Virus record (IMG/VR): IMGVR_UViG_3300014836_000691
Coordinates: 1-64,000 of that record
Direction: 5' to 3' (one strand)
DNA: 64,000 nt
DNA from: a virus
This document shows positions 3,699 to 64,000 of the stretch, piece after piece. A model generated the notes under the pieces. The model was given only the letters and a program-made list of their open reading frames with translations. It was not told the DNA's origin and did no database searches. The stretch's first letter is position 1, and each line of letters begins with the position of its first letter. Both the position numbers and the translations under genes were made by a program.

Positions 3699-3727
3699 CA
3701 AACAACTATTTACAAAGCCTAATATCT

Positions 3728-7893: not shown

Positions 7894-8601
7894 ATGGCAA
7901 CGAGAGGAACATCTGAAAAGGCATTGAAATCTGATGCCCTTCCGTTGGACGAAAAGATTGGTCGTGAAAAGAGGGCTAAGATTTACCAGCGAGAACAAAA
8001 GGTGCTTTTAGACATAACCAAAAAGATAAACGACAACCCAGAGAAATATAAAAAGAAGATACAGGATTTCTATGCAGGGTTTATGGGTTATGTGGAAGTG
8101 GGGTATGGAACGATGGTTACCCTCCACGGTTCTGAGATAAGAGAGGAAATTAAAGATAAGTTGGTAAAAGCGTTCAACGCACTACCGAAGGAAATAAAGT
8201 CCTACCTTACGCTAAAGGGTGATGAAATACCTACGCTTTACAGGGGTGCAACAGAAAGGGAATCCGTTGGAAAAAATGATTTTCTTTCTTTTACTTCAAG
8301 TGAAGAGATTGCAAAGATGTTCAGCAGGGGAGGTAAGGTCAGTAAATTAGACGAATTAAAAGGATACGACTTCATCCTTTCGATTGATAAGGTTGCCGAT
8401 TTTGCCAAAGAGGTGGAAAGAGACGCTACGGATAGATGGGAAGAGAGCGTTTTGGGCAGAAATGCTCAAGGATACTTGAACGACTGGCCGGAAGAGGGGC
8501 TTCCATCAAGACCCTATGATACTTATTTTTGGTATAAAGAGCCAGAAACAAACGAAAGAGAATACTTCGTGTTTGGTGCTAAGTGGAAGTCCAAGGATTG
8601 A
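7894..8601 (+). CDS. MATR-leader protein, ADP-ribosyltransferase-like (R-S-E clade)
   Basis: MATRGTSEKALKSD leader; LYRG...FLSFTSS...NEREY. Confidence 0.65.
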   Translation: MATRGTSEKALKSDALPLDEKIGREKRAKIYQREQKVLLDITKKINDNPEKYKKKIQDFYAGFMGYVEVGYGTMVTLHGSEIREEIKDKLVKAFNALPKEIKSYLTLKGDEIPTLYRGATERESVGKNDFLSFTSSEEIAKMFSRGGKVSKLDELKGYDFILSIDKVADFAKEVERDATDRWEESVLGRNAQGYLNDWPEEGLPSRPYDTYFWYKEPETNEREYFVFGAKWKSKD

Positions 8602-41649: not shown

Positions 41650-42372
41650 ATGGCTACGAGAAGCACCAAAGCCTCTGCTGGTAGTGTCCAAGACACTATT
41701 ACCGCAGAAAAGAATGTAAGAACCGACTTTGATACATACGAAGGTCGCTTCAATGTTTCGGCGGCTAATGCGTATGACTTCACAAAGACAGACCCCAAGG
41801 AAGGCATCGAAGCCGTTGCTAAGAGAGACGGTCAAGCCCCTACTAGGGAAGAAGTTACGATTGCTGAGCGTGTCTTTGATGGGGTTTCCTCTCTAGTTGA
41901 TAAGGGACTTCTCAAGTCCCACGCTGACGAGACTACCAATACGGATATTGGCAACGGCACTCGCCCCCAAATCTACAGCAGAGAGATTAATGGGGGTAGA
42001 GATGTTGAGTTTTACGCCGTTCAGATGGAAAAGAACCCTATCGCTGGTAGAGCCGTTATGGATAAGGCTTACTTCCTGTTCAAGATTCCGAACACGAAGT
42101 TCAGCCAAGACGATATGGTTTCTACGCCACAATGGGTGGAGGGGGTGGCAAACGAAGTTCTCTTCTCTGCCTCCAAGACCGCCTCGACCACACAGGCTAA
42201 TATCCCGAATCGAACCCCAGATTACATCGACAAGGTTGAGAGAGCCAGACAGACGGCTATCAGCCTTGATACAAACAGAGCAAGGAATGAGGGTGCAAGT
42301 GACGACTTCTTTGCCGACAGAAATCGTGAATTGAATCTTTCCAAGGTTCGCCAAAGACAACTCGCTGGTTAA
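41650..42372 (+). CDS. MATRS-leader protein (variant leader), unknown cargo
   Basis: MATRSTKASAGSVQD; TTGAC-N6-CAA at 41616. Confidence 0.7.
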   Translation: MATRSTKASAGSVQDTITAEKNVRTDFDTYEGRFNVSAANAYDFTKTDPKEGIEAVAKRDGQAPTREEVTIAERVFDGVSSLVDKGLLKSHADETTNTDIGNGTRPQIYSREINGGRDVEFYAVQMEKNPIAGRAVMDKAYFLFKIPNTKFSQDDMVSTPQWVEGVANEVLFSASKTASTTQANIPNRTPDYIDKVERARQTAISLDTNRARNEGASDDFFADRNRELNLSKVRQRQLAG

Positions 42373-42380: not shown

Positions 42381-43055
42381 ATGGCTACTCGTTCTACAGG
42401 TCAAACAACAGGGCAGGGACTGCAAAGCGATGTTCAGTATCGAAGAGGCAACCCCGCTTTTGACAATCTTCCCCAAAGTCCGTTGGATAAGATTTCTGAC
42501 CGCATTCCCCAAAAAGCCAATCTTATGAGCAAGGAAGAATACGATTCTATGCCCAAAGACTACAAGGCTACCATAGATGGGAAGAAGTTTGTTCTGGTTA
42601 TGGATTCTAGGGGCGGTGCGGCTCTCGCTCCTTGGATTGAGCGTGATGCTCGCATTCCCAAGGGCAAGTCCGCTTGGGACATTGGTCGTGATGAAGGTAG
42701 ACAGTATGGACTGGACGATGAAGCCCTCCAGAATGCCCAGCGACTTGAGGCTGGTGGTCTTGGCAACGGACTTCTTACCGTCAATTCCTCGATGGGCGAC
42801 CCAGAGTTTGGTGGTTTCAAGGTTCGCTATCCAGACGCTTACCAACAGGCATACGACAGTTTCTTAATTGATAGCCGAAACCCAAAGAGCGTCAAACTCG
42901 CCGCCGTCGAAGCCCTCGATAAACTTAGCCGTAAGAATATTGATGGGATGAGTAGCACCCAAATCCAGACTGCCGTTACAGAGTATGTCCAAGATAAACT
43001 TGGAGCGAAGTTTAAGGGCAGGGTTAAGTGGAATATGAAGTCTTACCCAGACTAA
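42381..43055 (+). CDS. MATRS-leader protein, unknown cargo
   Basis: MATRSTGQTTGQGLQSD. Confidence 0.75.
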   Translation: MATRSTGQTTGQGLQSDVQYRRGNPAFDNLPQSPLDKISDRIPQKANLMSKEEYDSMPKDYKATIDGKKFVLVMDSRGGAALAPWIERDARIPKGKSAWDIGRDEGRQYGLDDEALQNAQRLEAGGLGNGLLTVNSSMGDPEFGGFKVRYPDAYQQAYDSFLIDSRNPKSVKLAAVEALDKLSRKNIDGMSSTQIQTAVTEYVQDKLGAKFKGRVKWNMKSYPD

Positions 43056-47566: not shown

Positions 47567-47599
47567 CGAAACCCCATTCATCTGCTATAACATCTTCCT

Positions 47600-47803: not shown

Positions 47804-48007
47804 TGGGTTGCTAGGGGATGGTAAGACGCAACAGGCTAGGCTGGGGGCTGACAAAGGAAGTTGTCTTGGTTGCCAAGATGAACGACCTGTCAGTTGCCCA
47901 AGCCTCCTATCTTTATCAATGCTCCAAGTCTTCGGTAAGCCGTAGGGCAAGGCAAATGGGCATCGTGCTTAAGGGGTCGGACTCCAAGTTGACTCAACGC
48001 CAAGGGC

Positions 48008-48556: not shown

Positions 48557-48570
48557 CCCCACCTAAAACT

Positions 48571-49182: not shown

Positions 49183-49189
49183 TACAACT

Positions 49190-49879
49190 ATGGCTACTCG
49201 CTCTTCTTCTCAAGGACTCGCCTCTGATGCCGTCGGAGGTGGTTACACCCCCAAGTTTAAAGGATGGGAGGCAGGTCTTAACGCTGCTCACAATCGTAGC
49301 ATTGAAAAGGCTGACGAAAGATATGAAAAGGCACAAGACAACCGCTACGATGCGGCTGGCTCTGAGGATGAACATATGAAATCGAAGAGCATCGCCAATT
49401 ACGCATACAATCTTGCGGTAGATGCCTCTAGACTGAACGAAAAGGCAGAAAACGACTACATCCGTGGTGATGGGTCTACAGATGCGATTAAGGGAAGAGT
49501 CTTCAAGGATGCCTTAGACCAACTTTTGGGTTCTGACTTAAAGGATAAAGACGGCCCTAGAACCTTCGATTCCGAACGGCAAACGCTTATGTCTGCTTAC
49601 AGACGAAGTGCTGGTAGTGCAACTGACGAACAGGTTGAAACGGCATTCAATGATGAGGTGCTTACTGTCGTCCAAAGATTTGCTACTCAAATTGATGCTG
49701 TCTTAACGGCGAGGAAGCCTAGTGCAGATGCGTATCAAGATTTCAGAGGGGCTGTTAGTGCTTCTTGGGATGAATCTTTTGACAATGACTACAACGAAGG
49801 CGTAGTCCAAGCCGCATTAAGCATTATCGAAAAGACTTTCAAACTTACTAACGCAAAACTCACAGGAGAAGCACTCTAA
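49190..49879 (+). CDS. MATRS-leader protein
   Basis: MATRSSSQGLASD. Confidence 0.8.
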   Translation: MATRSSSQGLASDAVGGGYTPKFKGWEAGLNAAHNRSIEKADERYEKAQDNRYDAAGSEDEHMKSKSIANYAYNLAVDASRLNEKAENDYIRGDGSTDAIKGRVFKDALDQLLGSDLKDKDGPRTFDSERQTLMSAYRRSAGSATDEQVETAFNDEVLTVVQRFATQIDAVLTARKPSADAYQDFRGAVSASWDESFDNDYNEGVVQAALSIIEKTFKLTNAKLTGEAL

Positions 49880-49882
49880 CCT

Positions 49883-50683
49883 ATGGCTACTCGTTCCAAC
49901 AAGCAGGGCTTAGCCTCTGATATTTCAAACTACGAAAAAAGCGATGCCTCGTCTGCCCTTATGGGCAACTCGCTCTCTGCTGGAACTCAAGCCGCTGAGT
50001 TGCTGAGTGCCGACTCCAGTTCCAGAAGATATCGTGAGTCTCTGAGAGAGGCTGAGGTTGAAGCCGAAAACGGTAGCGAGTTTGAATACCTTGCCACCAC
50101 CGCCCTTAGAGATTACATCAAGGAGCAGGGGCTTGAGAACCAACTGTCGTCTGAAACAAAGGCGAAGATTAAAAAGTTTGATGAGATGGTTGAGAAGGGA
50201 CAAATGTCTTCTTCTACTGGTGGCTTAGAGCCTAGAGGCTTTGACAGGGTTGGAAACAACTTCTCCGTTTTTTCCAGAGATGTGGCTGACTCAATCAAAC
50301 TGGATACCCGCCACTTTATGAACAAGTCGCTCAGCAAATTGACGGGCTACAAGGAAGATGAGGCTAAGGGCTACGACCCTGTTGAAAGCCTTGGTAGGTT
50401 CTACCTTGGCAAGCGTGTTGCCCTTGTCGCCACAAGAGACGATGGCGTGAAGGCTGTTATTATGGATGAGAGCAGAGGCGAATCCAAGTTCAAGAAGGGC
50501 GATATCGTTGGCAACGCTGATTCCGGCCCTAACAACAGAGGCTGGACTGGCTCGGTTGTGAAAGTCATAAACTTTACCCCGCAAGACGCTCGGTTAGTTA
50601 TGGACAAATACAAGGCTGAGTGGTTTACTGACCCCTATCCCACCGTCAGAGACGGCAAGACAACCTTAGATACTACAGACTAA
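49883..50683 (+). CDS. MATRS-leader protein
   Basis: MATRSNKQGLASD. Confidence 0.8.
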   Translation: MATRSNKQGLASDISNYEKSDASSALMGNSLSAGTQAAELLSADSSSRRYRESLREAEVEAENGSEFEYLATTALRDYIKEQGLENQLSSETKAKIKKFDEMVEKGQMSSSTGGLEPRGFDRVGNNFSVFSRDVADSIKLDTRHFMNKSLSKLTGYKEDEAKGYDPVESLGRFYLGKRVALVATRDDGVKAVIMDESRGESKFKKGDIVGNADSGPNNRGWTGSVVKVINFTPQDARLVMDKYKAEWFTDPYPTVRDGKTTLDTTD

Positions 50684-50686
50684 TTT

Positions 50687-51400
50687 ATGGCAACTCGCTC
50701 TTCCAACCAAGGCACAGCCGCTTCCCTCGGAAGCGATTACAACTATGCCCAGTCGCAAAGACTTGAAAATAGAACTAATGAGGTGTTCAATGCCGAAGAC
50801 TTCCCGAAGTCGGCTAACGCCCCTACGATGAAGGCTTACAAGAACATCGCCACGAACATCGCCAAGTTCAGATTTGAGGGCGTTCCTAACGATGCTGAGG
50901 CTATGGAGCGATTCTTGGGCGAATGGCCTGCCGTCTTGAAGAGCCTTCAGATGGTCAGCCCCGATTTAAAACCAGATGAGGCTTTGTTTGCCTTCGGAAA
51001 TATTAACAAGGAACTTGGCAACACGGTTCGTAATGTCGAGGGTGCTAAGAACGGACAAGTGGTTTATGTTGGCGACAACATCAAATACAACGCAGGCCCA
51101 AAGGGTTCTGGTCTTAGACAGGGCATCTCGACCAAAAAGGATGCTGTGGTTGTCGCACAGGCGACTTCTGCCAACGGAGATAAATGGGTCAAAGTTGTTT
51201 CCAACACTCGGTTTTATATCGAAGACGGCAGAGAGCAGTCTTCCTCCGTCCTGTGGATTAGCGACAAGGGACAGGCTTTAACAAGCACCCTTGAAGCCGA
51301 AAAACTTAATCTTGAGGGTGATGGCAAGAAGACTCCTACGGCTGAGTTTGTTCAGTCCTTCTTTGAGTTCCATAAGCCGAAGGTTTGGCAAATCGGTTGA
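50687..51400 (+). CDS. MATRS-leader protein
   Basis: MATRSSNQGTAASLGSD. Confidence 0.8.
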   Translation: MATRSSNQGTAASLGSDYNYAQSQRLENRTNEVFNAEDFPKSANAPTMKAYKNIATNIAKFRFEGVPNDAEAMERFLGEWPAVLKSLQMVSPDLKPDEALFAFGNINKELGNTVRNVEGAKNGQVVYVGDNIKYNAGPKGSGLRQGISTKKDAVVVAQATSANGDKWVKVVSNTRFYIEDGREQSSSVLWISDKGQALTSTLEAEKLNLEGDGKKTPTAEFVQSFFEFHKPKVWQIG

Positions 51401-51408
51401 AAAACTGA

Positions 51409-52251
51409 ATGGCTACGAGAAGCAAGTCGAGTGGCAAACTTGAGTCGGACGATGATAAGTTGACCCGCTTGCTTGCGGGCGATGTTGAAGCCATCTTGGA
51501 GAAGAGTCTGAAGGGTGGCAATCTTTCGGACAAGCAACTGGCAAAGTATTTTGGCGTTTCCGAAGCGGAAATTGCCAAGGCTAAGTCCGACTTGGAGGCT
51601 TGGAAGAAGCAGAATGAGGGAAAGCAAGTGCCTCCGATGCCCGATGCGGGACAAGATTTTAATAATCTTTTAGACGGACAGGGCGTGGTTGCCGTTTGGA
51701 ACGAGTTATACGGTAAGACGCATAATCCAGATGGGACTCCAAAGACGGCAGGTTCTCAACCCGCTGGACAAACCCCTGCGACAGCCCCGCAAACCAATCC
51801 AGTCACACAGGCTACCCAGACTAAGGGTCAGCCTACAACCCCAGCCCAAGCAGCCGCCCAAGCCCAACAACAGGCTTCTGGTGCTAAGCCCGCCAAAGCG
51901 GGCAAGGGTGGTAAAGGCGGTAAGGGTGGTAAAGGTGATGAGGCTCAAGCGAAGGGTGAAAAGAAGTCCATCCCTTGGTATATGAAGCGAGGCTCTGGCT
52001 TTGCTCGTCTTGTTTTTGGCGGTGGTCGTGGTTCTGTTGACCCGCTTTATTCGACCTACGGAACATCTGGCGGTGGCTCTGGTGTCATTGCTGGCGGTGC
52101 GGCTTCCCTTCCAGAATCCGTCCAAGCCCTTATTGACAAGGGCAGAAGGCGTAGGGGCGGTTCTCCGTCCAAACCCTCCGCACCCTCCGCACCCGCTTCT
52201 GGTGGTGGTGGTGGTGGCTCAGCCCCTTCGGGCGGTGGCGGTTCTAAGTAA
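51409..52251 (+). CDS. MATRS-leader protein, G/P/Q low-complexity
   Basis: MATRSKSSGKLESD. Confidence 0.8.
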   Translation: MATRSKSSGKLESDDDKLTRLLAGDVEAILEKSLKGGNLSDKQLAKYFGVSEAEIAKAKSDLEAWKKQNEGKQVPPMPDAGQDFNNLLDGQGVVAVWNELYGKTHNPDGTPKTAGSQPAGQTPATAPQTNPVTQATQTKGQPTTPAQAAAQAQQQASGAKPAKAGKGGKGGKGGKGDEAQAKGEKKSIPWYMKRGSGFARLVFGGGRGSVDPLYSTYGTSGGGSGVIAGGAASLPESVQALIDKGRRRRGGSPSKPSAPSAPASGGGGGGSAPSGGGGSK

Positions 52252-52288
52252 GCCCCATTAGTCCTGTTGACAACGAGCAACATTACAA

Positions 52289-52702
52289 ATGGAAGCCTGT
52301 TCGGAAGCCACGGAACATATCCTTAACCTTACCCACACGGTGGCTAGGTTGAAGCAACTTGCCAGCACGGAGCAAATCCAGCGTGGCAAGATTATCGACA
52401 TTGGAGAAGATATGCTGAAGGCTTGGATGAACGGCGAACCGTATTCCGAAGTCTATCACGCTAGATGGGCTGAGGCAACTGACCCGAAGTCGCTCGAAAA
52501 GAAGTTCAAGCAAATCAACAAAGAGTTCGACAGGAAAGAACAGGAACAGCGTGAGCAGATGCAGATGACTGCTGAACAGAAGGCTAATCAGCAGAAGGAA
52601 AAGGAAGCAGAGGCGATTAACGCCGATGCCAAACTTCAGAAGGCTAAGAACTCGCTCAAGGACGCTGAGGACAAGGCTAACAAGAAGAAAGAGGGCAAGT
52701 AA
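52289..52702 (+). CDS. Hypothetical coiled-coil protein
   Basis: TTGAC-N6-CAA at 52267. Confidence 0.6.
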   Translation: MEACSEATEHILNLTHTVARLKQLASTEQIQRGKIIDIGEDMLKAWMNGEPYSEVYHARWAEATDPKSLEKKFKQINKEFDRKEQEQREQMQMTAEQKANQQKEKEAEAINADAKLQKAKNSLKDAEDKANKKKEGK

Positions 52703-52704
52703 TC

Positions 52705-53628
52705 GTGGCTACAAGAGGCACATCCGCATCAATGGGGTCGGCGGTAACTCTTGCTTCTGATGCCAAATCGCTAGGCAAGGTGGTTGGCGATTACACCAAG
52801 TCCAAGGACTTGTTTGACCAATTTATTGCTAGGCAGGAAAAGATTGAGGAACGCAAACTGAACAAGGGCGAAGTCCTTAAAATCTTAGGCAACATCCTAG
52901 AGGATATCGACAATCACGAAGATAGGATGGAAAGATGGGAAAAGGAACTGAGAGACACCAAGTTTTACAACGATTACACCCGCAAGGAGGGTAGAGGGGG
53001 TAAGGACATTCCCGAAAGCGAATGGAAGCCCGCCAAGCCCCTCCCGACTAAGCCAGAACCGCTTTCTGGGACTGTTGCAGAGGTGGCTGATAAACTTAAT
53101 GAGTTCTTGGGTCGAGTCGCACACCACCAGTCTAACGATTCATCTTTCGCCAAGAATCCAGACGCTTTGGTTGAGGCTTTCAACGACCTCCCAGAAGTGA
53201 TTAAGCCGTTCGTGTTAGCCCCTAGGGGGCTGATTAAGAGGCTGTATAGGGGTGATGAGGCTGGCAAGTCTGAGATTGTGCAGGGTAGAGGGGTGGCATC
53301 CTTTGCTACCACGCCTCGAAATGTAGGCTTCTGGGGTAGGTATGTTTATAAAGGCTCAGATATAGAGTCATTTGCTGGCATCATCGACACAGGTCGTATC
53401 GTCAAGAACTTCGACTCTTACTCCAAGATTGGCGAACTGCTTGGCACTATCGCTAGAAACTCTATCGAAATAGGGGATGATGAGGACGAGAAGATTGTGT
53501 TTGGCATTAAGTGGAAGAAGAATGTCGGTGACCGAGATTGGATGGACAAAAACGGCAGAAAATCCGACACTTTTAAGGAAAAATACTACGAAAATCCAAG
53601 GTTAAAGGAAAACAGGTTTGACGACTGA
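52705..53628 (+). CDS. MATR-leader protein, ADP-ribosyltransferase-like
   Basis: MATRGTSASMGSAVTLASD; LYRG...VASFAT...DEDEKIV. Confidence 0.65.
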   Translation: MATRGTSASMGSAVTLASDAKSLGKVVGDYTKSKDLFDQFIARQEKIEERKLNKGEVLKILGNILEDIDNHEDRMERWEKELRDTKFYNDYTRKEGRGGKDIPESEWKPAKPLPTKPEPLSGTVAEVADKLNEFLGRVAHHQSNDSSFAKNPDALVEAFNDLPEVIKPFVLAPRGLIKRLYRGDEAGKSEIVQGRGVASFATTPRNVGFWGRYVYKGSDIESFAGIIDTGRIVKNFDSYSKIGELLGTIARNSIEIGDDEDEKIVFGIKWKKNVGDRDWMDKNGRKSDTFKEKYYENPRLKENRFDD

Positions 53629-53634
53629 TGAATG

Positions 53635-53661
53635 GGGGCGTGAAAAACGCCCCTTCTTTTT
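53635..53661 (+). terminator. Rho-independent terminator
   Basis: GGGGCG-TGAAAAA-CGCCCC-TTCTTTTT. Confidence 0.75.
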
Positions 53662-53701
53662 GCTCGTTGACAAACATTCAAAGATAACCACTATTTTAGT
53701 T

Positions 53702-54442
53702 ATGGCAACTCGCTCAACCAATGCTGGATTAGGTTCTGATTTTAGACCTAGAGGCTCTTTTTCCTACGGAACAGGAATCGCCGCACAGGTCGAGGCTGGC
53801 ATCGACAAGGCACACAAGAACCGTGTTGGTGCAGATTCTTACGCTAAGTCCCTTTCGGACGATGCTCTTGCTAAGGCGTGGGAGGCTACAAGCAGAGAGT
53901 ATGATAGAATGTCTAGGGGTGCGGACGAGTTTGATAAGGAGAACCCCGAAGCGGGCAACTTTGGCTCTGCTGACTCGTATGTAAGAATGGGTGCGGACAG
54001 TTACCACGACACCTACTACAAGCCAATCATCAATGAACTTTCTCGCAGATGGCTCAACACAGACGGAAAGCCCTTCTGGTTGGAATCTAGCGAACAGAAG
54101 AAATACAAAAGCCAAGGGGTTCAATACAGCGGTGAAAAACCTTGGGATTTACTACAGTATTATATGAACTATGAGGTGTCCCCTTCCGTTTCAATTAGTA
54201 TGCGAAGAGATGTTTCCAGAGGGTCTGGAAGCAAGGTTGATTTTAGCGGAGTCAGCGATGAAATTATCGCTAGGTCTGTCAAGATAGCCGAACAGGGGCT
54301 TGATGAGATTCGTAGAGAGTCGATTGAGCGTGATAAAAAGATTGGCAAAGACAACTATTACGAATCCAATTACCCCAAGGATTGGAAAGAGAACATCCTC
54401 GACCCTCTGGTTAACGAACTTAACAGACGCAAAAACAAATAA
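53702..54442 (+). CDS. MATRS-leader protein
   Basis: MATRSTNAGLGSD; internal duplication (D..LA.A ... P+.NEL.RR twice). Confidence 0.8.
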   Translation: MATRSTNAGLGSDFRPRGSFSYGTGIAAQVEAGIDKAHKNRVGADSYAKSLSDDALAKAWEATSREYDRMSRGADEFDKENPEAGNFGSADSYVRMGADSYHDTYYKPIINELSRRWLNTDGKPFWLESSEQKKYKSQGVQYSGEKPWDLLQYYMNYEVSPSVSISMRRDVSRGSGSKVDFSGVSDEIIARSVKIAEQGLDEIRRESIERDKKIGKDNYYESNYPKDWKENILDPLVNELNRRKNK

Positions 54443-54449
54443 TTAATTT

Positions 54450-55202
54450 ATGGCTACTCGCTCTCCAAAGGCTTCCACAGCCGCAGAACTTGGTTCGGAC
54501 ATTCCTCGTAAGTCCGGCCCTGAGAACTTCAATGAGAACATTGAATATATGAAGAAGCGTTACTTTGGCGAAAACCAAGGTGCTTCCGCAAAGAAGGCTA
54601 CCGCTATCGTGGAAGGCATTGATGTTTCGTCTAAGACGAATGTTGACCTTAACCCCCTTCTTTACGCTAAGGCTATTACCAGAGTCCTTATGGACGACCT
54701 TGAGACGAAGAGTGGCAGAAATGTAGAACCTAATGGGCTAGTGGAAGTTGACGCTGAAGCGATGAAATACAATGTTGATATGATTTACACTAGCAGAATC
54801 CACAATCAACTGGCTTCCAGCCTTGCTTTCAAGTTAACCACCGAACTTTTCAATACCGTTGGTGGCAATCAAAAGGAGGACAGTCCGTTTGCTATTGCTC
54901 CTTACAAGGAGAATGGGGTTAGAGTTGACCCGATGCAGATGTATCAAGACATTAGAAGCGTCCTTATGCAGTATGCGTCCGTCCACAGGGTTGTCAACAA
55001 CCTTGGCTTTGACGAGGGAGAGGACTCCGATAACAATCCAGTCCAGTTTGCCAGAGATACGATGCAACGCATCTACCAAGAGGTGAACAACTACGGTCAA
55101 TACGGTAAGGGTCAATTTGCTGAGATGTTCGATAAGGCTATGACTTCGTTCAAGTCCACACTTGAAAGCCCCGACTTCGACAGGAGAATCGGCAACGCTT
55201 AA
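54450..55202 (+). CDS. MATRS-leader protein
   Basis: MATRSPKASTAAELGSD. Confidence 0.8.
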   Translation: MATRSPKASTAAELGSDIPRKSGPENFNENIEYMKKRYFGENQGASAKKATAIVEGIDVSSKTNVDLNPLLYAKAITRVLMDDLETKSGRNVEPNGLVEVDAEAMKYNVDMIYTSRIHNQLASSLAFKLTTELFNTVGGNQKEDSPFAIAPYKENGVRVDPMQMYQDIRSVLMQYASVHRVVNNLGFDEGEDSDNNPVQFARDTMQRIYQEVNNYGQYGKGQFAEMFDKAMTSFKSTLESPDFDRRIGNA

Positions 55203-55211
55203 TGCAACTTT

Positions 55212-55904
55212 ATGGCAACTCGTTCCAATAAACAGGGTCTGGCTTCCGATGTTTCCTCGACTGGTCGAGGTGGCTTCTCCGCTGGTCGTGACCAAGCCGA
55301 ATTGCTTGGCTCTATCACTCAAGCAAATGGGGCTAAGGACAAGGAAAGGACAAACATTTTCCGTGAAATTAGGGCTGGTCAAAGCGACAGAGTGTTTGAA
55401 AGCGTGACTTTCCCACAGGCGGTCACAAAACTGCTTGGCGACAACCTTGCATTTGAGGACTACGGCTACATTCTACAGTCTTTAAACTCTAGCGAAAGAA
55501 TGGGAAGTGGCACAGGCTATCAAGACAACGCATTAAATAGCGATGATTTTGAAGTAATCCTCAAACAAAGAGACAAATCTCTTGGACTGGTTGAAAACTT
55601 GCTCGATTATAACAACGGAAACATTGGTTATTCCGTTATTACGGATGCGGGAGCGTTTCCAAAGGGAGGCAATCCCAACAACGAGGCATCTGCCAAGGTC
55701 AGAAATGCCTTGTTTGATATGTATGAGGCTGGACAAAAAATGGAAAAGGCTATTAAAACCTACGAAGAGGTCAGAGATATGTCGGAAAGCCAGAAACTCA
55801 GAAGGGCAGACGGAACAGCCCTTTGGGGCAGGGCAAGAAAAGACCTTGCAAACGCATTAATTGATTTCAGAGAGGCAAGAAACTCCGTTAAGGAACAAGC
55901 GTAA
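55212..55904 (+). CDS. MATRS-leader protein
   Basis: MATRSNKQGLASD. Confidence 0.8.
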   Translation: MATRSNKQGLASDVSSTGRGGFSAGRDQAELLGSITQANGAKDKERTNIFREIRAGQSDRVFESVTFPQAVTKLLGDNLAFEDYGYILQSLNSSERMGSGTGYQDNALNSDDFEVILKQRDKSLGLVENLLDYNNGNIGYSVITDAGAFPKGGNPNNEASAKVRNALFDMYEAGQKMEKAIKTYEEVRDMSESQKLRRADGTALWGRARKDLANALIDFREARNSVKEQA

Positions 55905-55908
55905 TTTT

Positions 55909-56523
55909 ATGGCAACTCGTTCTAATAAGCAAAGTTTGGCATCTGATTCCGGCCCTTACGGTGGGGCTGAGTGGCGGGCTATGGAGGCTAAGCGTAGCGG
56001 TAGCGTTCCAGATTTCTCCGTTGCTGATATTCGTGAAATCGTAAGATTTTCCGATAGGCGTGAACAGGATAATTTTGAGGGGGTTGCCAACGAAATCAAA
56101 AACACCACCGCAAAAACAAGCCAAGATTTGCTGGATAATTTCTTGCATAGCGATTTTGCCAACAAGCAGTATAATTACCGTAAGGGATTCGGGGCCCTTG
56201 ATTCCTACGATGTTTTCAACGGAACACAGGAAAACTACAATGTCCTTCTGGCATACAGGGACTTGCTTGCAAATGGGAACAGCAACTCTGGGACTGCGTT
56301 TGTGAAGTCCAAGGAAGAGATTGCTCAACTTGACGAAGCAATACTCAACTATGCTGAAAAAGCACGAACCGCCTATGAAGCCCTTGAGTATGGTCGTAGC
56401 GGAACTGAAGGCTCTGCCGAAGCACTTGAAAACTATAACAGGGCTGTTGCCTATGTGAGAAATACCTTTGCTGACATTATTCTCCCAACTAAGCGTGGCC
56501 CTAGAGTTGGCAGAGTGGAATAA
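55909..56523 (+). CDS. MATRS-leader protein
   Basis: MATRSNKQSLASD. Confidence 0.8.
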   Translation: MATRSNKQSLASDSGPYGGAEWRAMEAKRSGSVPDFSVADIREIVRFSDRREQDNFEGVANEIKNTTAKTSQDLLDNFLHSDFANKQYNYRKGFGALDSYDVFNGTQENYNVLLAYRDLLANGNSNSGTAFVKSKEEIAQLDEAILNYAEKARTAYEALEYGRSGTEGSAEALENYNRAVAYVRNTFADIILPTKRGPRVGRVE

Positions 56524-56526
56524 CCT

Positions 56527-57276
56527 ATGGCTACTCGCTCAACAGTCCAAGGTCTTCAGAGCGACCTTTCTAGAAAACTCAGAGACAAGGCTTCTGCACT
56601 TAGAGAAGAAAATGAGAAGGAAAAGCAGGAGGTAGCCAAGACCGAGCAGGAATACAACGATACGGTTGAACAGGAGCGTATTCGCATTGAGGAAGAAGTG
56701 ATGAAGGAGATGAAAGACCGTAAGTGGTCTGTTGATAGAGAAGCCCAAGAAAAGCGAGAAGCGGAAGCGAAACTGGCTGAAGAACAGGCAGTCGCAGAGG
56801 AAAAGCGTGAGCGTGAATTGAAATACAAATGGGAGGGGATGGTGGAGGGCATCGAAAGCAAGATTAAGAAAAACAATAATAAGATTAAGGAAGACTTCCT
56901 TACATTTGGAAGTAAAAACCTCCTTAATAAAGAATTAAAGTTCCCTATCGCTTGGAGTGATACTTTTATGAGAAAAGTTATGAAGGATGTTCCCGATGAA
57001 ATAAGGAGTGCTGTGTCCCACTTATTTGAATCAACTTCTGAAGACCGCTTTGATTTTTCTAAGGCTTCTCAAATTGCTTACGCTAATGGGTCTGGAAAAT
57101 CAACGAGCCTTGACGAGCGTATTGAAAACCTTTCCGAGAAGGATGTTCCTTCGGCAGAGGAACACAAAGCAGGTCTTAAGAGCGTCCAAACCTTTGAAAA
57201 GTTCGTTCGTAAGATGCTTGCGTCCACCAAGGAGAAGGATTTGGCTTGGGACGAGGACGGCAATTACAGAGACTAA
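56527..57276 (+). CDS. MATRS-leader protein with charged coiled coil
   Basis: MATRSTVQGLQSD. Confidence 0.8.
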   Translation: MATRSTVQGLQSDLSRKLRDKASALREENEKEKQEVAKTEQEYNDTVEQERIRIEEEVMKEMKDRKWSVDREAQEKREAEAKLAEEQAVAEEKRERELKYKWEGMVEGIESKIKKNNNKIKEDFLTFGSKNLLNKELKFPIAWSDTFMRKVMKDVPDEIRSAVSHLFESTSEDRFDFSKASQIAYANGSGKSTSLDERIENLSEKDVPSAEEHKAGLKSVQTFEKFVRKMLASTKEKDLAWDEDGNYRD

Positions 57277-57280
57277 GTAA

Positions 57281-57562
57281 ATGATGGGCAACAAGACGGT
57301 AGAGCGTCTAAGAGGTATGAACAACAGCGAGTTGAACGCCGTTAGGCGTTCTCTTTCTGAGGTTGTAGCCGAACTCAAACTGGTAGAAAAGAACCTTCGG
57401 GTTTTGGTTAACCAGAACACCCTTGACTTGACACCCACCCTTCTCTCTCATCAAGATACTGGCAAACAAGAACGGCAACACGCCGCCGAGCAGACCTACG
57501 AGGGCGTTCTAAGAGTCCGAGAGCAGGTCAAGGCACTCCTTATTGACAATCCACAACAATAA
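57281..57562 (+). CDS. Hypothetical protein
   Basis: ORF in array lacking the leader. Confidence 0.5.
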   Translation: MMGNKTVERLRGMNNSELNAVRRSLSEVVAELKLVEKNLRVLVNQNTLDLTPTLLSHQDTGKQERQHAAEQTYEGVLRVREQVKALLIDNPQQ

Positions 57563-57569
57563 ATACACA

Positions 57570-57707
57570 ATGAGCAAAAAGAAAGACAACGGCGACAAGA
57601 CTCGCTATGTGATTGACGACACCTCTATCACAAACATCCAAAAAATCCTCAAGGCTATCCAAGAGGGCGTTAAGTCCCCGCCCAAGCCCGACAAGCCCAA
57701 GAAGTAA
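57570..57707 (+). CDS. Small basic protein (45 aa, not in ORF track)
   Basis: MSKKKDNGDKTRYVIDD...; TTGAC-N6-CAA at 57543. Confidence 0.5.
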   Translation: MSKKKDNGDKTRYVIDDTSITNIQKILKAIQEGVKSPPKPDKPKK

Positions 57708-57741
57708 GCGAGGAGCGTCTGGTTGACTAAGCACCAAAAAG

Positions 57742-58809
57742 ATGGCGACCAGAGGCGTTAAAACATCATTCTCTATCCCCAATGTCTTGGCTTCGGATAC
57801 CGTCCAGCCCAAGGACATTAAGGATATGTCGTGGAAAGAGTGGAGTGCCTTAAAGAAGAGTATGGAAGGTCGAGTCTGGCTCGACTATCCCAGCCCCGAT
57901 AATCCCGACCAACAGAAGGCTAGAATGGATGCCTTCAATAAAATTGAGAAAATGGACAGGGAATGGGAGAAGGCAAAGCGTGATAAGGAGAAAGCCGAGA
58001 AAGCGGCTAGAAAGGCTGAGCGTGAGGGCAAGAAGAACGCCAAGGAGCAGGAGCGTAACCGCATCGAGAACCTTGGTAAGACGCTCTCCGAAGAACTGCT
58101 ACCCAACGAGGTGGCGTTATCCCAGAACTATTACGACTATCATAAGGGTCAGCAGAGATACTTTGAAGGCACAGTCAGCGATTTAGGAAACGACAGCGTT
58201 AGCAAGGAAGTCAGAGAAAAACTCTATGTAGGGAGCAAATACGGCAATCATACCTACAAGGATAAGGACGGCAATCCTGTCCGTGAAATAATGTATGAGG
58301 TAAGACCCGGCCTCAAAGACTGGTTTGATGTTCAGCCCGATGGAGGCTTTTCGGGTAAACTGAGCAGGGAAGAATTAGCGGCAAAAGCCAAGTCCGCAGG
58401 AATGGAACTGGTTTACCACTATGGTCGTGATTACTATGCCATAATTACCAAGTTGCCGAATGGGACAATACAGAAGGAACTATTCCCGCCAGAAACTTTC
58501 ACAAAGAACCAGAAGAAGAGCGATGTTCAAATCGCCCAAGAAGCGGACAGGGACGCCGCAATCAATGTGCAGATGTTCGTGAACAAACTTATCAGCAAGA
58601 CCGAAGAACTGGCTGGTAAGGGCGAGAAGGTTGGCTCAGTCAGATGGGTCGGAGCAGATTCGGGCGACCCTTGGGACGAAAGCACTATCCAAATCGAACT
58701 GAACGATAAGCGAGTCACTTGGAAGACCAAGATGATTGATAATCGCTCCAAACTGGACAATCACTTTAACCAATGGCCGACCAGACTGGTTGGCGTATCG
58801 GAGATTTAA
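57742..58809 (+). CDS. MATR-leader protein
   Basis: MATRGVKTSFSIPNVLASD; C-terminal N.SKL...FNQWPTR. Confidence 0.75.
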   Translation: MATRGVKTSFSIPNVLASDTVQPKDIKDMSWKEWSALKKSMEGRVWLDYPSPDNPDQQKARMDAFNKIEKMDREWEKAKRDKEKAEKAARKAEREGKKNAKEQERNRIENLGKTLSEELLPNEVALSQNYYDYHKGQQRYFEGTVSDLGNDSVSKEVREKLYVGSKYGNHTYKDKDGNPVREIMYEVRPGLKDWFDVQPDGGFSGKLSREELAAKAKSAGMELVYHYGRDYYAIITKLPNGTIQKELFPPETFTKNQKKSDVQIAQEADRDAAINVQMFVNKLISKTEELAGKGEKVGSVRWVGADSGDPWDESTIQIELNDKRVTWKTKMIDNRSKLDNHFNQWPTRLVGVSEI

Positions 58810-58812
58810 TAA

Positions 58813-59679
58813 ATGGCATCGAGAAGTTCATCGTCAACCTTAGCGTCTGATGTTCGTGAAGAGCAGAACAAGAATCCTGCTATTCAGAAAATGCGGAACG
58901 CATTTAGCACCGTCTTGGGCGAAAAGGATACCGAGGGTAATCGCAACGGTAGGCTGACGGTAAAGATGAGTGCGGAGGAGAGGACTGGTAATCCTAGTTG
59001 GTATCCAGACTCTGATTTGATGGAAAAGGAGTTAGGAGGCGAAATCAAGCCCCTCACCAACCCGAACTTCAAGAATGAGGGCGAGGATTCTATGCACAAA
59101 CTCGCTATGTCTTGGCGAAAGAACGAGTTTGAAAGCATCGCATTTTTCACGAAGGACGGAAAGTTCCTAGGTAAGACGCAATCGGCGTTTGACGACCCTC
59201 ATCGGGTCGAAGTTCCCAATCGTCTTGCTTACCGTCTGAGCAAGGAGGACGGCGTTTCCATCCACAACCACCCGCAGAGCGACCTTTCGTTCTCGCACAC
59301 GGACATTCAGACTTGGCTTCAAGAGAATGTAAGTGAAATGATGGTTGTGAGTAAGAACTTTATTTATTCCATCCGACAGAAGGAAGACAACTCTGGTCGT
59401 GGGGCCCCTGTGGGCAAGCGAGACACCGGCCCTAGACCCTACCAGATTGCCAAAGAGTTTATCGACTCTCTGGGTGACGAGGCTGAAATCCGTAAGACGG
59501 TAGACTCTATTGCTAGGGCTGGCTGGATTGAAAAGGGCAAGAAGGTGTATGGGGACGAGGGTGGTGTCCCCAAGCAGATTGTGCCTTTCGCACATTGGAA
59601 CAGAATGTTGCAGAACCTTTCTGAGAAGCACGGCTTCGTCTACAAGGTCTACAGACTGCCCAAAGAACAGCCCGCCTAA
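58813..59679 (+). CDS. MASRS-leader protein with JAB/MPN domain
   Basis: MASRSSSSTLASD; upstream E, HNHP....FS..D. Confidence 0.7.
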   Translation: MASRSSSSTLASDVREEQNKNPAIQKMRNAFSTVLGEKDTEGNRNGRLTVKMSAEERTGNPSWYPDSDLMEKELGGEIKPLTNPNFKNEGEDSMHKLAMSWRKNEFESIAFFTKDGKFLGKTQSAFDDPHRVEVPNRLAYRLSKEDGVSIHNHPQSDLSFSHTDIQTWLQENVSEMMVVSKNFIYSIRQKEDNSGRGAPVGKRDTGPRPYQIAKEFIDSLGDEAEIRKTVDSIARAGWIEKGKKVYGDEGGVPKQIVPFAHWNRMLQNLSEKHGFVYKVYRLPKEQPA

Positions 59680-59740
59680 GCACCTCATTGGTGCTTCTTT
59701 GCTCTATTGACAAGAACCAAAGGGCAAACCAGCATTCTTT

Positions 59741-60469
59741 ATGGCAACCCGAAGCACAGGTCAAAGTCTTGCGAGCGACATTGGTGGTCTTAACTACACC
59801 AAGAAATACGAAGATAATCCGTATTCGTCTCCCAGAACCAATACGATTATGCGTATTGCTAGGGCTTCTGACGGTCTTACCCTTGGAAATACGGCGTATG
59901 ACGCTAGAGGAAATCGGGTAGGTTTTATTCGTGAGGATGGAACGATTGATAGTTCCGTTGCCGTCCCCCAGCAATCCCCGAAGGAGTTTGCGGCTACCGA
60001 CAAGGCTATCAAGGCTATGGCTGGCTCGTTTGTGGCTCTAGATAAGGGGATGAGGGTTGGAACACCTCTGGAATTACAGAAACTTGCGGTCAAACTGGCT
60101 AACGATTCTCAGAAGGTCTTGAGAAGCCTTGGATACGGTCTTGATACGGTTTCTTGGAACGACCCTCAGAGTGCTTCGGACTTTATCGCAAGGGTTAACA
60201 GAGACGGCTTTACCTATGCAAAGGAGGCTTTGAGAAATTACTTTTGGTCGCAAGCAACAGGTCACGCGGCTTACGGACGAGAAATCTATGATGAGCAAGA
60301 GAAGAGTGTAACATTGGCTTCTGGTGCAGGGTCGGCAAGCGACCCAGAGGGTAATGTTGAAATCTACGAAAGCACAATCAACAATCCCAAGGCTAGAGCC
60401 GAGTATGAGTCTACCGTAAGACAGCAAAAGAAGTTCAACAACTACCGAGGTATGGTCAAGGAGGACTAA
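59741..60469 (+). CDS. MATRS-leader protein
   Basis: MATRSTGQSLASD. Confidence 0.8.
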   Translation: MATRSTGQSLASDIGGLNYTKKYEDNPYSSPRTNTIMRIARASDGLTLGNTAYDARGNRVGFIREDGTIDSSVAVPQQSPKEFAATDKAIKAMAGSFVALDKGMRVGTPLELQKLAVKLANDSQKVLRSLGYGLDTVSWNDPQSASDFIARVNRDGFTYAKEALRNYFWSQATGHAAYGREIYDEQEKSVTLASGAGSASDPEGNVEIYESTINNPKARAEYESTVRQQKKFNNYRGMVKED

Positions 60470-60472
60470 CCT

Positions 60473-61117
60473 ATGGCAACCCGAAGCACACCACAGGCTT
60501 TAGCAAGTGATGCCGTTCCACGGCAACCAAAGGAAAAGAAGATTTCCGTAGCAGAAAAGCGTCTGGCTTTCAAAAAGATGTATGACTTTTCTGGCGACAA
60601 GGAAACGCAGGGGGTCGCACAAAAACTTGCGGAAGCACCTCAGTCCGAAAGAAAGTTGTTTGTTGATTTCGTCAAAACCATCAAAGCCTATCAAGGCGAC
60701 CAGCATTTCAGAAAGAAGGGGTATCTTGAACGCCGTGAGGCTATTTACAAGGCATACGATGCCCTCCCCCAGTATGCCAAAGATGTCATTGGTAGACCCG
60801 AAGAATCCATAAAAGATTTGGTTCGTGGTGCTACCACAAAGGCTGAGGCTGGATTAAACGGAAAGGTTAACGCTTCTTTTGAGTTAAAGATTACATCCAC
60901 AGGTGTATGGGGCAACGACACAGGAACTCGAAAGGAATACACCGCTAACGAAATCAAATCTTTTGACGATATTATTTCCTTCCACAAGGCTTGGGAAATA
61001 GCCAGCAATCTAAGTGATACAAGAGTGGTAAAGGGCAGTTCTCTGGACAGAACTGACGAATCTTACCAAAACGAGTTCTTGGTTACCAACATCAAGTGGA
61101 AAGACGGAGTTGTGTAA
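60473..61117 (+). CDS. MATRS-leader protein, ADP-ribosyltransferase-like
   Basis: MATRSTPQALASD; LVRG...NASF...QNEFLV. Confidence 0.6.
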   Translation: MATRSTPQALASDAVPRQPKEKKISVAEKRLAFKKMYDFSGDKETQGVAQKLAEAPQSERKLFVDFVKTIKAYQGDQHFRKKGYLERREAIYKAYDALPQYAKDVIGRPEESIKDLVRGATTKAEAGLNGKVNASFELKITSTGVWGNDTGTRKEYTANEIKSFDDIISFHKAWEIASNLSDTRVVKGSSLDRTDESYQNEFLVTNIKWKDGVV

Positions 61118-61120
61118 TTT

Positions 61121-61792
61121 ATGGCTACCCGAAGCACAAACAAGTCGCTTCAATCTGACATTCAAGAACCCATCAGACTTACAGGCAGGTTTGTTCATAG
61201 AACAGTAGGCGAAGAGCCTAACAGAAATGCCGAGCAAGCCGTCAGAACAGATAACGCAATTAGCGAGTTGGAGTCATTAGGCACTCCTAACCCAAACATT
61301 TCCGCTGAAGACTACGGCAAGCACTTTGATTTTTACACGGAAGACGGCTCTAAGGCTACCTTTGCCGTATCTCGTAATGCGTGGGATGACTCTTTCTATC
61401 TGAGAACAATTGAAAGCGTATCTGGTAAGGGGGCAGGAACTGCCTTTATGAAAAAGATGGTAGAGATTGCCGACAAATACAATGTCCCGATTAGCCTTAA
61501 TGTAGAGCCGTTTACTAGAGATAGAAATGTTGAATCCACTCAAAAAGCCAGAGAAAGGGCTAATGAGGCTATAAAAAAGAACCGTGAAGAAGCGAAGGCT
61601 AGGGGCGAACTCCCCAAGCCGATGAAAATAGATTTTTCTGGTGGAGTAAAGGTAGTCTCCACGCCTTCATTTGATAAGATTGTAGCGTTCTACGAGCGTT
61701 TTGGCTTTAAGCACACGCCAAAAAGCAAAACTAAGGTGTCTGGCGACTATGTTATGATTCGCCAGCCTAATGGGGGCGAGGAAGAGGCTTGA
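61121..61792 (+). CDS. MATRS-leader protein, GNAT acetyltransferase
   Basis: MATRSTNKSLQSD; GKGAGT..MK.+...AD; FYERFGF. Confidence 0.75.
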   Translation: MATRSTNKSLQSDIQEPIRLTGRFVHRTVGEEPNRNAEQAVRTDNAISELESLGTPNPNISAEDYGKHFDFYTEDGSKATFAVSRNAWDDSFYLRTIESVSGKGAGTAFMKKMVEIADKYNVPISLNVEPFTRDRNVESTQKARERANEAIKKNREEAKARGELPKPMKIDFSGGVKVVSTPSFDKIVAFYERFGFKHTPKSKTKVSGDYVMIRQPNGGEEEA

Positions 61793-62280
61793 TGGCGACA
61801 CGAAGCACACAGGCTAACTTGCTCCGTTCGGACATTAAGGGCTTTGATGCAGTCCCAGTAGAGCGAGGAACATCCAAGGTGAAAGACGGCTATGTAAGGG
61901 TCTATCACCAAACATCCCCAGAGAACATAGAGTCTATTCGCAAGACTGGTTTGCTTGTGGAGAAATCAAGGTCGTCCTCCGAATCCAGAGGAGTTTCCGT
62001 ATCTGACACCCCATTCTACGGAAATAACCCTAATCTTGTTACTATCGAACTTCAAATCCCAAAGGAAGTTAAGGCAAAATCCCAAGGTCTTGCCCTTCAG
62101 CAAGACATTCCAGCAAGCGACATACTGGCTATTCACGAACCTTGGCACGACAAGGTTAGATACATTGAACAGAATCCAGTTACGCTGAAAGAAGTTCTAA
62201 ACGGAGACTTTGACTATCTTCTTAATGACGAAGAATATGGCAGGGCTGTTCGTTATATTAAAGGAAAGGAACAGGCTTAA
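61792..62280 (+). CDS. MATRS-leader protein, H-x-T-type ADP-ribosyltransferase-like
   Basis: MATRSTQANLLRSD; VYHQTSPENIESIRKTGL...IP..DI. Confidence 0.6.
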   Translation: MATRSTQANLLRSDIKGFDAVPVERGTSKVKDGYVRVYHQTSPENIESIRKTGLLVEKSRSSSESRGVSVSDTPFYGNNPNLVTIELQIPKEVKAKSQGLALQQDIPASDILAIHEPWHDKVRYIEQNPVTLKEVLNGDFDYLLNDEEYGRAVRYIKGKEQA

Positions 62281-62915
62281 TGGCGACCAGAAGCACAAGC
62301 AAATCCCTCAATTCCGACCTTCCTAGTTCTGGGAGTGAAACATTGTTCAATCTGGCAAACGCAGTTTATTTACACATAAGGGGCAACTGGGGGTATAGAA
62401 CACAGGCAAACCTAGATAGGTTAATCGAAAACAAAAAGGACATAGTGAGGCTGTTCAAGCAACTTCCAGAAGACATAAAGAAGGCGTGTTCTGGCGAAGC
62501 GGATGGGAAGCCTCTTTATCGTGGCGTGAGCGTGGATACCCTTAAAGAGTTTGGGGAGTGGAATAACGGAAAGTTTGTTTATGGATTCACGGACAGCCTT
62601 AACACGGCTAGAAGGTTTGCCAACGGACACACGGAAAACGGCTCAAGAGTCCTTACATTTGACGACATAGACTCGTATGGGGGCGTTATTGACCTCAAAA
62701 AACTGTCGAATGTAATCAAAGACTACAACAAAGATAAGCCGTTAGGCGACCATATCAAGGATTTTGGTGGATTTTCCGATGCCTACGGAGAGACTGAATA
62801 CTTGGTTTACGACATTAAGTTTAAGACCAGACCAGACGGCAAGTTCTACTCAGATAAACCGTATGAGCAAGGGGCTTGGGATAACTACGAAAGGTTCAAC
62901 CCCTTGAACGCTTGA
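62280..62915 (+). CDS. MATRS-leader protein, ADP-ribosyltransferase-like
   Basis: MATRSTSKSLNSD; LYRG...YGFTDS...A..F...GETEYLV. Confidence 0.65.
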   Translation: MATRSTSKSLNSDLPSSGSETLFNLANAVYLHIRGNWGYRTQANLDRLIENKKDIVRLFKQLPEDIKKACSGEADGKPLYRGVSVDTLKEFGEWNNGKFVYGFTDSLNTARRFANGHTENGSRVLTFDDIDSYGGVIDLKKLSNVIKDYNKDKPLGDHIKDFGGFSDAYGETEYLVYDIKFKTRPDGKFYSDKPYEQGAWDNYERFNPLNA

Positions 62916-62918
62916 TTT

Positions 62919-63548
62919 ATGGCGACTAGAAGCGGGAACAGAAACGGAAGCGAGTCCCTTCGCTCTGACCTTTCTCAAGGCGGTGACTCGGATGCAAGGA
63001 TGAGAGAGCGAGTGCTTCGTTCTGCAATAGGTAGCAAGGCTGAGGCTAAGAGCATTAGCGACTTCACCAAGGAACTGGAATACTACCAGTCCAACCGCAG
63101 AAACAGGGATAAAAGCCGTGTTATTAAGGCTTTCAATGAACTCCCATCAGCCGTTCAGAAATACATTTCTGAGCCAGCCAATAAGATTAAAGAACTCTAC
63201 CGTGGCTTTGACAATAATCCCGACAGGCAGGGCGTAGCGTCCTTTACGGACAACTACCAAGCGGCTCTCAACTTCGGAAGCAAGGTCATTAGGTCAAAAG
63301 ACTTAGAAAAGTTTGACGGAATAATCAACACGCAGAAGTTTATGAAACTGCTGGATACGAGTGGCAAGGCGGGCGGTTCGCTTGCCGATTTGGTCGCCCC
63401 AGAGCATAGGTTGCGTAGGGACGAGGGTGAATATATAGTGTATGGGGGAGTATATAAAAAGAACATTGGAGACAAAGACTGGATGGAAGAAAACTCCCGC
63501 TTTATGATGGAAAACTACGGCGTTAAAACCCCAAAGGTTAAGCCGTAG
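62919..63548 (+). CDS. MATRS-leader protein, ADP-ribosyltransferase-like
   Basis: MATRSGNRNGSESLRSD; LYRG...VASFTD...A..F...DEGEYIV. Confidence 0.7.
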   Translation: MATRSGNRNGSESLRSDLSQGGDSDARMRERVLRSAIGSKAEAKSISDFTKELEYYQSNRRNRDKSRVIKAFNELPSAVQKYISEPANKIKELYRGFDNNPDRQGVASFTDNYQAALNFGSKVIRSKDLEKFDGIINTQKFMKLLDTSGKAGGSLADLVAPEHRLRRDEGEYIVYGGVYKKNIGDKDWMEENSRFMMENYGVKTPKVKP

Positions 63549-63999: not shown

Positions 64000-64000
64000 G

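Follow-up and report, generated by a model that had tools for sequence, protein, structure and literature searches.

An N-terminal tag shared by otherwise unrelated proteins of an uncultured S49-protease phage as a candidate address for head loading

The internal proteins of phage T4 are diverse and share only the capsid-targeting sequence (CTS) that brings them to the scaffolding core (PMC3012670), and the T4 head protease gp21 removes N-terminal propeptides; head proteases of T4 and of the phiKZ type cut at motifs that end in an acidic residue (PMC5694885). T4 Alt is a packaged ADP-ribosyltransferase (ART), and MuF fusions are also an established delivery route (PMC5512222). In phage P1, the first 30 residues of DarB are enough to target a protein to the capsid (PMC9024508). 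The subject of this study is IMG/VR virus record IMGVR_UViG_3300014836_000691 (G000), which is linear, 73,999 bp long and an estimated 72% complete; its first 64,000 bases, the whole stretch that was analyzed, are referred to as the window. A short N-terminal leader that runs from MATRS to an L-x-S-D end, here called the tag, opens a large set of otherwise unrelated proteins of this virus, and most likely loads them into the virus head.

The tag resembles the CTS of T4, carried by IPI-III and Alt, in being a short N-terminal peptide on otherwise unrelated proteins of one phage and in its acidic end, and one tagged family is ART-like, as T4 Alt is a packaged ART. It differs from the T4 system in the protease, which is of the S49 type as in lambda gpC and not gp21, in the lambda-family portal and P22-like coat, and in its MA(T)R..x-S-D/E grammar, found on 25 or more genes in 74 kb and in lineage-specific variants. 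Targeting and cleavage, described for T4, are putative here. P1 DarB likewise uses an N-terminal stretch as a capsid-loading signal, although what the source describes is one signal on one very large protein and not a multi-gene tag. SPN3US, a phiKZ-like phage, has many head proteins, large paralog families, propeptides cut at a short Glu-ending motif and two paralogs with identical N-termini (PMC5694885), but it belongs to the giant myoviruses with a T4-type protease, and the shared N-termini in that account are found in paralogs and not on unrelated bodies. MuF fusions and polyvalent proteins are comparable in that they use a head-associated module to deliver effector domains along with the DNA (PMC5512222); there the effectors are fused to MuF or portal, whereas here separate genes carry tags of 13–19 residues. 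Literature searches, with subscription journals and supplements outside their coverage, turned up neither this tag nor a CTS-like system of many genes in phages with an S49 protease. Encapsulin cargo-loading peptides are short terminal addresses to the inside of an HK97-fold shell, usually C-terminal and not removed, and similarly direct diverse cargo, but encapsulins are not virions and these peptides have no sequence similarity to the tags described here. The principle is known from T4 and P1; what is new is the combination of S49 protease, lambda-type portal and P22-type coat in one head and the scale relative to genome size, as well as a family of tag variants, specific to each lineage and replaced in concert, that co-varies with a gene of the head module.

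Translation of every start bore out the initial annotation, which had described a MA(T/S)R(S/G/R) leader on 22 genes, 20 of them continuing to L-x-S-D. All 22 genes are on the + strand and open with M/V-A-(T/S)-R-(S/G/R), 21 from ATG and one (52705) from GTG, and L-x-S-D is reached within 13–19 residues in 20 of them; the two genes that had been set apart as variants, at 5294 and 41650, do not reach it. A six-frame search for MA[TS]R returned the 21 ATG starts and one open reading frame (ORF) on the - strand (47200, 94 aa, without LxSD), which is probably a chance occurrence. When all candidate starts of the 73,999-bp record were counted (ATG or GTG with at least 80 codons to the stop), MATR opened 24 of 730, and the runner-up 4-mer only 3. 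The tag set is larger than first noted, with four further genes past the window at record positions 67860, 68787, 69573 and 72204, and the 25 tagged genes (5294 left out) total 18,774 nt, or 25% of the record. The earlier statement that the payload is far larger than that of T4 holds in gene number only. Conservation of the leader was also claimed to act at the peptide level, and the codons agree. The leaders of 49883 and 55212 have the same 13 residues and differ at 8 of 39 bases, seven of these being third positions. Over 21 leaders, Arg4 is encoded by AGA (8), CGT (4), CGC (5) or CGA (4), and Ser5 by TCN (9) or AGY (9), and the mismatch fraction within codons 2–5 is 0.64 at third positions compared with 0.22 at first and second positions. 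Such synonymous differences and codon-family switches under identical or nearly identical leaders indicate selection on the peptide rather than on the DNA.

Behind the tag the proteins diverge. Total lengths in the window are 162–355 aa, and all-against-all BLASTP of the 22 bodies linked only one five-member family at E<1e-3 (52705, 62919, 60473, 62280 and 7894), in line with the sizes and the mostly unrelated bodies first reported. None of the 20 tagged proteins submitted to Pfam matched a family at E<=0.01 (5294 and 7894 were not submitted), and two of the 20 matched a PHROG family, both of unknown function, one being phrog_4687 for the gene at 57742..58809. The genes are tightly packed, a stop codon being followed by ~3 nt and the next ATG. 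A variant leader without LxSD (41650..42372) precedes a gene with the leader MATRSTGQTTGQGLQSD (42381..43055), and the array that begins at 49190 contains three singleton bodies (49190..49879, 49883..50683 and 51409..52251), tagged genes at 54450..55202, 55212..55904, 55909..56523, 59741..60469 and 61792..62280, and those taken up below. Two untagged ORFs also lie within this array, at 52289-52702 (137 aa) and 57281-57562 (93 aa), and could encode partner, immunity or chaperone proteins.

The tag is not confined to this record. Twenty-seven IMG/VR loci have portals 57–76% identical to that of G000 and the same module order, with the coat gene the most conserved and the gene corresponding to 5294 the least. 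It had been expected that the motif would be enriched in relatives with the same scaffold and S49 type; variant tag sets occur within the clade that shares this portal, S49 protease, scaffold and coat, and no MATRS array was found in the portal relatives. Unbiased counts of N-terminal 4-mers gave MARG at 22 of 953 starts in G001 and 15 of 658 in G004. The tag reads MATRS..LxSD in G000, MARGYSQSRSE in G001, MARGsNs..GRaARSE in G004, MARGxSRxxSE in G003 (two genes) and MARSY..(V/A)RSD in G007, and on metagenome contigs MARGxSRAxSE (L038, L039) or MPTRNGxS..SLRS[D/E] (L037, L040, L041); these short metagenome contigs, found via the ART-like family, are syntenic with the 3' part of the record. The common grammar is M, a small residue, an optional T, R, then G, S or N, a polar or basic linker, and x-S-[D/E]. 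Two further sets of N-termini were observed. In a more distant relative by its portal (62% identity), two ~480-aa proteins beside the portal (G006, 33932 and 35612, both - strand; L028, 227-1672 and 1889-3322) carry a different leader of 17–20 residues, MPTEEGDKR..AS[D/E]; the L028 pair lies just 5' of the portal gene, and both proteins contain an H-T-H-P segment. Four small ORFs of G002, another portal relative (91–127 aa, 38855-44174), open with MHT(V/D)S, which could mark either a further tag or a small family of paralogs without relation to the tags. In IMG/VR, a degenerate DNA pattern written for MPTRNG gave 22 single hits, which were set aside as chance because none opens an ORF of at least 50 codons starting MPTR[NSGT], and IMG/VR scans with 52705 or with a profile returned no relatives, a search that was insensitive, as G001 holds a family member.

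The tag follows the genome and not the body that it precedes. By genome-specific patterns, 93 tagged ORFs were curated from 11 records, and these fall into 50 body families, 19 of which have more than one member. Because the curated ORFs were selected by pattern, tblastn with the G000 bodies is the unbiased test. This gave 36 hits in other records, of which 33 open with the tag of the resident genome; two of the remaining three are cut by contig ends and one has its tag behind a non-ATG start, and MATRS was found on none of the 36. Four G000 bodies are 67–72% identical to orthologs of the MPTRNG lineage, among them those at 50687..51400 (72%, under MPTRNG..SLRSD) and 60473..61117 (71–72%), and their leaders share only 3–8 of 12–22 aligned columns. 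Within a genome, nine unrelated G000 proteins with 13-residue leaders share a mean of 8.3 of 12 leader residues, and the figure for nineteen G001 leaders is 7.7 of 10. Body families, by contrast with the tags, are found in changing slots and genomes. The same bodies also occur without the tag: homologs of the GNAT-like body of 61121..61792 in G006 (26609-26884, - strand) and G008 (14067-14420, - strand) are missing the first 50–70 residues, and since these relatives have no MA(T)R-type set, the family is used both tagged and untagged. Among 1.84 billion cluster representatives the ART-like profile matched 148 at E<=0.001, and of the 144 examined (four already seen were left out) 60 are tagged, with MARG in 52, MPTR in 6 and MARS in 2; the other 84 are untagged, many of them short and beginning near the conserved core. 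Descent of the tagged genes as diverged paralogs of one ancestral gene was rejected in view of the leaderless homologs of two body families and the differing fold leads. As read from these sequences, the tag is a portable module that is uniform within each genome and is swapped whole between genomes, implying one shared recognition partner per lineage.

Several observations tie the tag to the head module. This module begins with a portal protein of the lambda family (892..2676, + strand; Pfam PF05136, 4.5e-36; phrog_21), followed on the same strand by an S49 prohead protease, the candidate leader peptidase (2673..3698; Pfam PF01343, 2.4e-15; phrog_53 head maturation protease, 1e-51). Aligned with lambda gpC, the protease shows 23% identity across 224 aa (E 2e-12). 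Ser177 and Lys229, which we take to be the catalytic pair, each fall opposite a gpC residue and do not vary among 10 relatives. The next product, of 525 aa (3695..5272, + strand), has a TTG start that overlaps the protease stop and is a probable scaffold from its position and composition; it has no match in Pfam or PHROG, resembles a coiled coil rich in K and E, is basic at the C-terminus, and has KKGKKA/KKAKKA-type segments repeated between acidic runs. Among relatives its ends are conserved and its middle is not, and the gene is present in all 25 of the 27 portal loci that reach far enough past the protease. The major capsid protein (6008..6898, + strand; phrog_283, 2.9e-30) matches P22_CoatProtein (PF11651, 1.6e-9), and its identity to relatives is 82–86% in 16 of the 23 loci holding a coat gene and 66–69% in the other seven. 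The head was first called lambda-type, which fits the portal and the protease but not this coat.

Directly 5' of the coat gene is a head-module gene (5294..5944, + strand, 216 aa) that starts with MATRR and has no LxSD. The gene in this position opens with the first 3–5 residues of the tag in all seven lineages in which both are known: the coat-upstream gene and the tag read MATRR and MATRS in G000, MATRG and MPTRS in L011, MARSY and MARSY in G007, MARGF and MARGY in G001, and MARGG and MARG in each of G003, G004 and L022. G008 has MPGSN at this start, and its 36.7-kb record yielded no tagged gene. Distant relatives have a 5294-like protein with stretches rich in Pro and Lys and a strongly basic tail at the C-terminus, a composition that would suit an internal protein. 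Tagged genes also lie in the head module itself, 1–1.5 kb 3' of the coat gene in G000, L011, L022 and L014/G004, and the body in this slot is ART-like in G000 (7894..8601, leader MATRGTSEKALKSD) and L011, of the 56527 family in L022 (an ortholog of 56527..57276 under MARGS..ARSE) and GNAT-like in L014/G004. Three tagged genes of G001 lie ~5 kb 3' of the coat gene.

A sequence motif upstream of these genes may provide another link. On the + strand TTGAC-N6-CAA occurs 16 times compared with 2.7 expected, and the N7 form 11 times compared with 3.2. The (G)TTGAC-N6/7-CAA sites are spread over 626-59720 (for example 5948, 7847, 23304, 38257, 41616, 53667, 57723 and 59707) and stand 5–45 nt 5' of eight tagged genes and also of the coat gene, a tail gene and the tRNA array, which weakly suggests shared regulation. 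The motif is too near the ATG for a sigma-70 -35 element and could be a processing site or a compact promoter particular to the phage. A terminator-like hairpin stands ahead of it at 53634 and 59678, and the tagged gene at 53702..54442 has both a hairpin and the N7 form on its 5' side. The untagged ORF at 52289-52702 lies directly behind an N6 form. Within 47000-64000, sigma-70-like promoters (20 found, 15.0 expected) and terminator-like sites (21 found, 19.2 expected) are not enriched.

Together, the genome-uniform tag, the co-varying head gene, the head-module slot and the clade with its shared module are consistent with the initial suggestion of a capsid-targeting signal as far as a modular, head-linked address is concerned. 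The acidic end and predicted disorder of the tag also favor this reading. We give an even chance to the tag being an N-terminal address and propeptide that is modular and serves head assembly in a clade of uncultured S49-protease tailed phages. The start of the tag would dock the protein on a phage-encoded part of the assembling procapsid, which could be the scaffold, the coat interior, the portal or the protease; the S49 protease would then cut the tag off after its terminal acidic residue, and the mature proteins, including the ART-like, GNAT-like and MuF-like ones, would be retained in the head and pass into the host along with the DNA. In its fullest form, in which the clade uses a lineage-specific N-terminal code to load a large kit of enzymes, each encoded separately and rapidly exchangeable, into the S49-matured capsid for injection, and tag and phage receptor or protease co-evolve such that each lineage loads only its own cargo, the proposal is rather doubtful.

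A number of results weigh against head loading. The co-variation with the coat-upstream gene rests on ~3 independent tag types, because the MARG lineages are related to one another. A model of 5294 (predicted local distance difference test score, pLDDT, 67) gave no Foldseek match at E<=1e-3, and the gene holds the place of the external decoration gene of lambda, where interior targeting is unneeded. The TTGAC motif is not specific to virion or late genes, because it is also found 5' of the tRNA array and of small non-structural genes. The 525-residue scaffold of G000 contains seven SD/SE dipeptides, about the number expected from its composition by a hand estimate, and a few S-[D/E] positions recur between lineages. 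A literature search for the cleavage specificity of S49 prohead proteases found no paper, and the 22-residue leader annotated as removed from portal protein B in the lambda RefSeq record (337-402) ends in ..REYA and not in S-[D/E]; it was considered as a guide to S49 specificity and dropped, as this end gives S-[D/E] no support, although it is a precedent for N-terminal removal in an S49-protease phage. Among the portal relatives, G002, G006, G008 and G009 have no MA(T)R-type tag set. Verrucomicrobia phage P8625, the nearest GenBank phage by coat and portal (35.5% and 24.8% identity) and the only GenBank coat relative, has the tag on 0 of 52 coding sequences. The ART-like gene at 7894 has no match among GenBank phages, and no cultured phage with the system was found there.

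The alternative that fares best, although it is unlikely, is that the tag is read by host machinery, either by mimicking a host N-terminal processing or sorting motif or as a non-classical secretion signal, with its variants following the host lineage. Host switching would explain equally well why the tag differs between phages with ~70% identical bodies. There is a precedent for phage proteins adopting a host leader: in staphylococcal phage 80alpha, capsid and scaffold proteins imitate the leader of ribosomal protein L27 that the host protease Prp cuts. The leader itself is polar, S/T-rich and predicted to be disordered (residues 1–21 have pLDDT <50 in the model of 62919), which would suit such a signal, but no hydrophobic run longer than 4 occurs among its first 25 residues, and it holds a single Arg. 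It lacks both the core of ~10 or more hydrophobic residues of a Sec signal and the twin arginine plus core of a Tat signal, as had been concluded before. A host reader also sits poorly with the presence of the phage's own S49 head protease, in which the aligned Ser and Lys are conserved, with the start that the tag has in common with a head-module gene, and with the tagged genes inside the head module.

A propeptide that is removed by a protease and has no targeting role would keep dangerous enzymes, such as the ART-like proteins, inactive until a protease, whether that of the head or a different one, is made. The conserved S-[D/E] end ahead of enzyme-like bodies and the strictly conserved module boundary, which fits a cleavage site, are both accounted for in this way. 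However, a disordered peptide of 13 residues followed by a variable linker of 30–60 residues would hardly inhibit unrelated folds, and the first 4–5 residues, which are the most conserved and are shared with the head-module protein, are left without explanation; we regard this alternative as quite improbable. Still less probable is a role as an N-terminal degron or timing tag, by which protein lifetime in the infected cell would be limited: such a tag would be short, disordered, N-terminal, genome-uniform and portable, as this one is, but the L-x-S-D end and the head-module links would then be unexplained, and nothing points to a protease adaptor. Conservation of the nucleic acid, DNA or RNA, for initiating translation or as homology for the recombinational exchange of cassettes, with the peptide a by-product, would suit the tight gene packing and the shuffling of body families between genomes and slots, but is extremely improbable and was already disfavored by the codon data above (third-position excess of mismatches, Arg and Ser codon-family switches, and 8 of 39 bases differing under one peptide).

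For the proteins that head loading would deliver, a few leads were obtained. The five-member family (7894, 52705..53628, 60473, 62280..62915 and 62919..63548) is described here as ART-like rather than ART, a weak assignment that draws on motifs and a model. In an alignment of 21 sequences, R95 (LYRG) and E171 are invariant and S108 (ASF) and E169 nearly so, and Arg, Ser and Glu-x-Glu motifs follow in order, with a D-E-x-E segment; we take R95, S108 and E169/E171 to be the R-S-E triad of ADP-ribosyltransferases. Four of the proteins (not 7894) were searched in Pfam and match no family at E<=0.01, and the family profile found nothing below E 0.4 among PDB sequences. The model of 62919 (pLDDT 78) has a best Foldseek E of 0.14, which is not significant, with weak matches that are mostly ADP-ribosyltransferases, and the top 40 VIA-align matches are all of the ART fold at weak Z values of 3.6–5.0 (64–125 residues, root mean square deviation 2.1–5.1). 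Searching for fused, longer versions of this family gave no hits, a negative that carries little weight. For 61121, the ten best family-bearing hits among Atlas look-alikes (feature score 0.90–0.93) are all GNAT, and the family alignment conserves a ..GKGAG.. segment, presumably the acetyl-CoA binding motif; with no Pfam match at E<=0.01, it is tentatively GNAT acetyltransferase-like. Similarly, 58813..59679 may be MuF- or minor-capsid-like, since its structural look-alikes in the Atlas at template modeling (TM) scores of 0.5–0.57 include clusters with PF04233 and PF06152 (among those at 0.54 and 0.57), a lead only, and it has no Pfam match at E<=0.01.

The window as a whole is composed of the head module, a tail region with weak tail-family matches, a tRNA array and many small + strand genes. 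The tight array of 11 tRNAs at 38293-39189 (Gln, Thr, Ala, Glu, Trp, Asn, Pro, Arg, Lys, Leu, Met) is preceded by TTGAC-N7-CAA at 38257, and an Rfam scan returned nothing but these tRNAs. A Mom-like DNA modification gene (13207-14127, phrog_1384, 7.9e-16), a PAPS-reductase-like gene (37153-38253, phrog_2302, 4.2e-79) and a ParB-like gene (39248-39871, phrog_2159, 6.5e-63) together suggest DNA hypermodification functions. Megablast of parts of the window against GenBank phages gave zero matches. The sole GTDB match is a 6.5-kb contig of a Chthoniobacterales metagenome-assembled genome (34%), and this contig and the coat relative P8625 allow Verrucomicrobiota to be put forward as a weak guess for the host.

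If the tag loads the head, the proteins that are injected could be read from sequence alone, here from a quarter of the genome, and these proteins have no family assignment. The system appears widespread in environmental phages, because a single ART-like family has 60 tagged proteins among 144 representatives. Head loading would extend the capsid-targeting principle of T4 to head maturation with an S49 protease, a lambda-type portal and a P22-like coat, and would mean that the address is replaceable as a unit across dozens of genes. The cargo, with its ART-like and GNAT-like members and many proteins of unknown function, would be rich in functions for host takeover and counter-defence, and the tag itself would be a compact, programmable protein-packaging handle for engineered non-T4 capsids.

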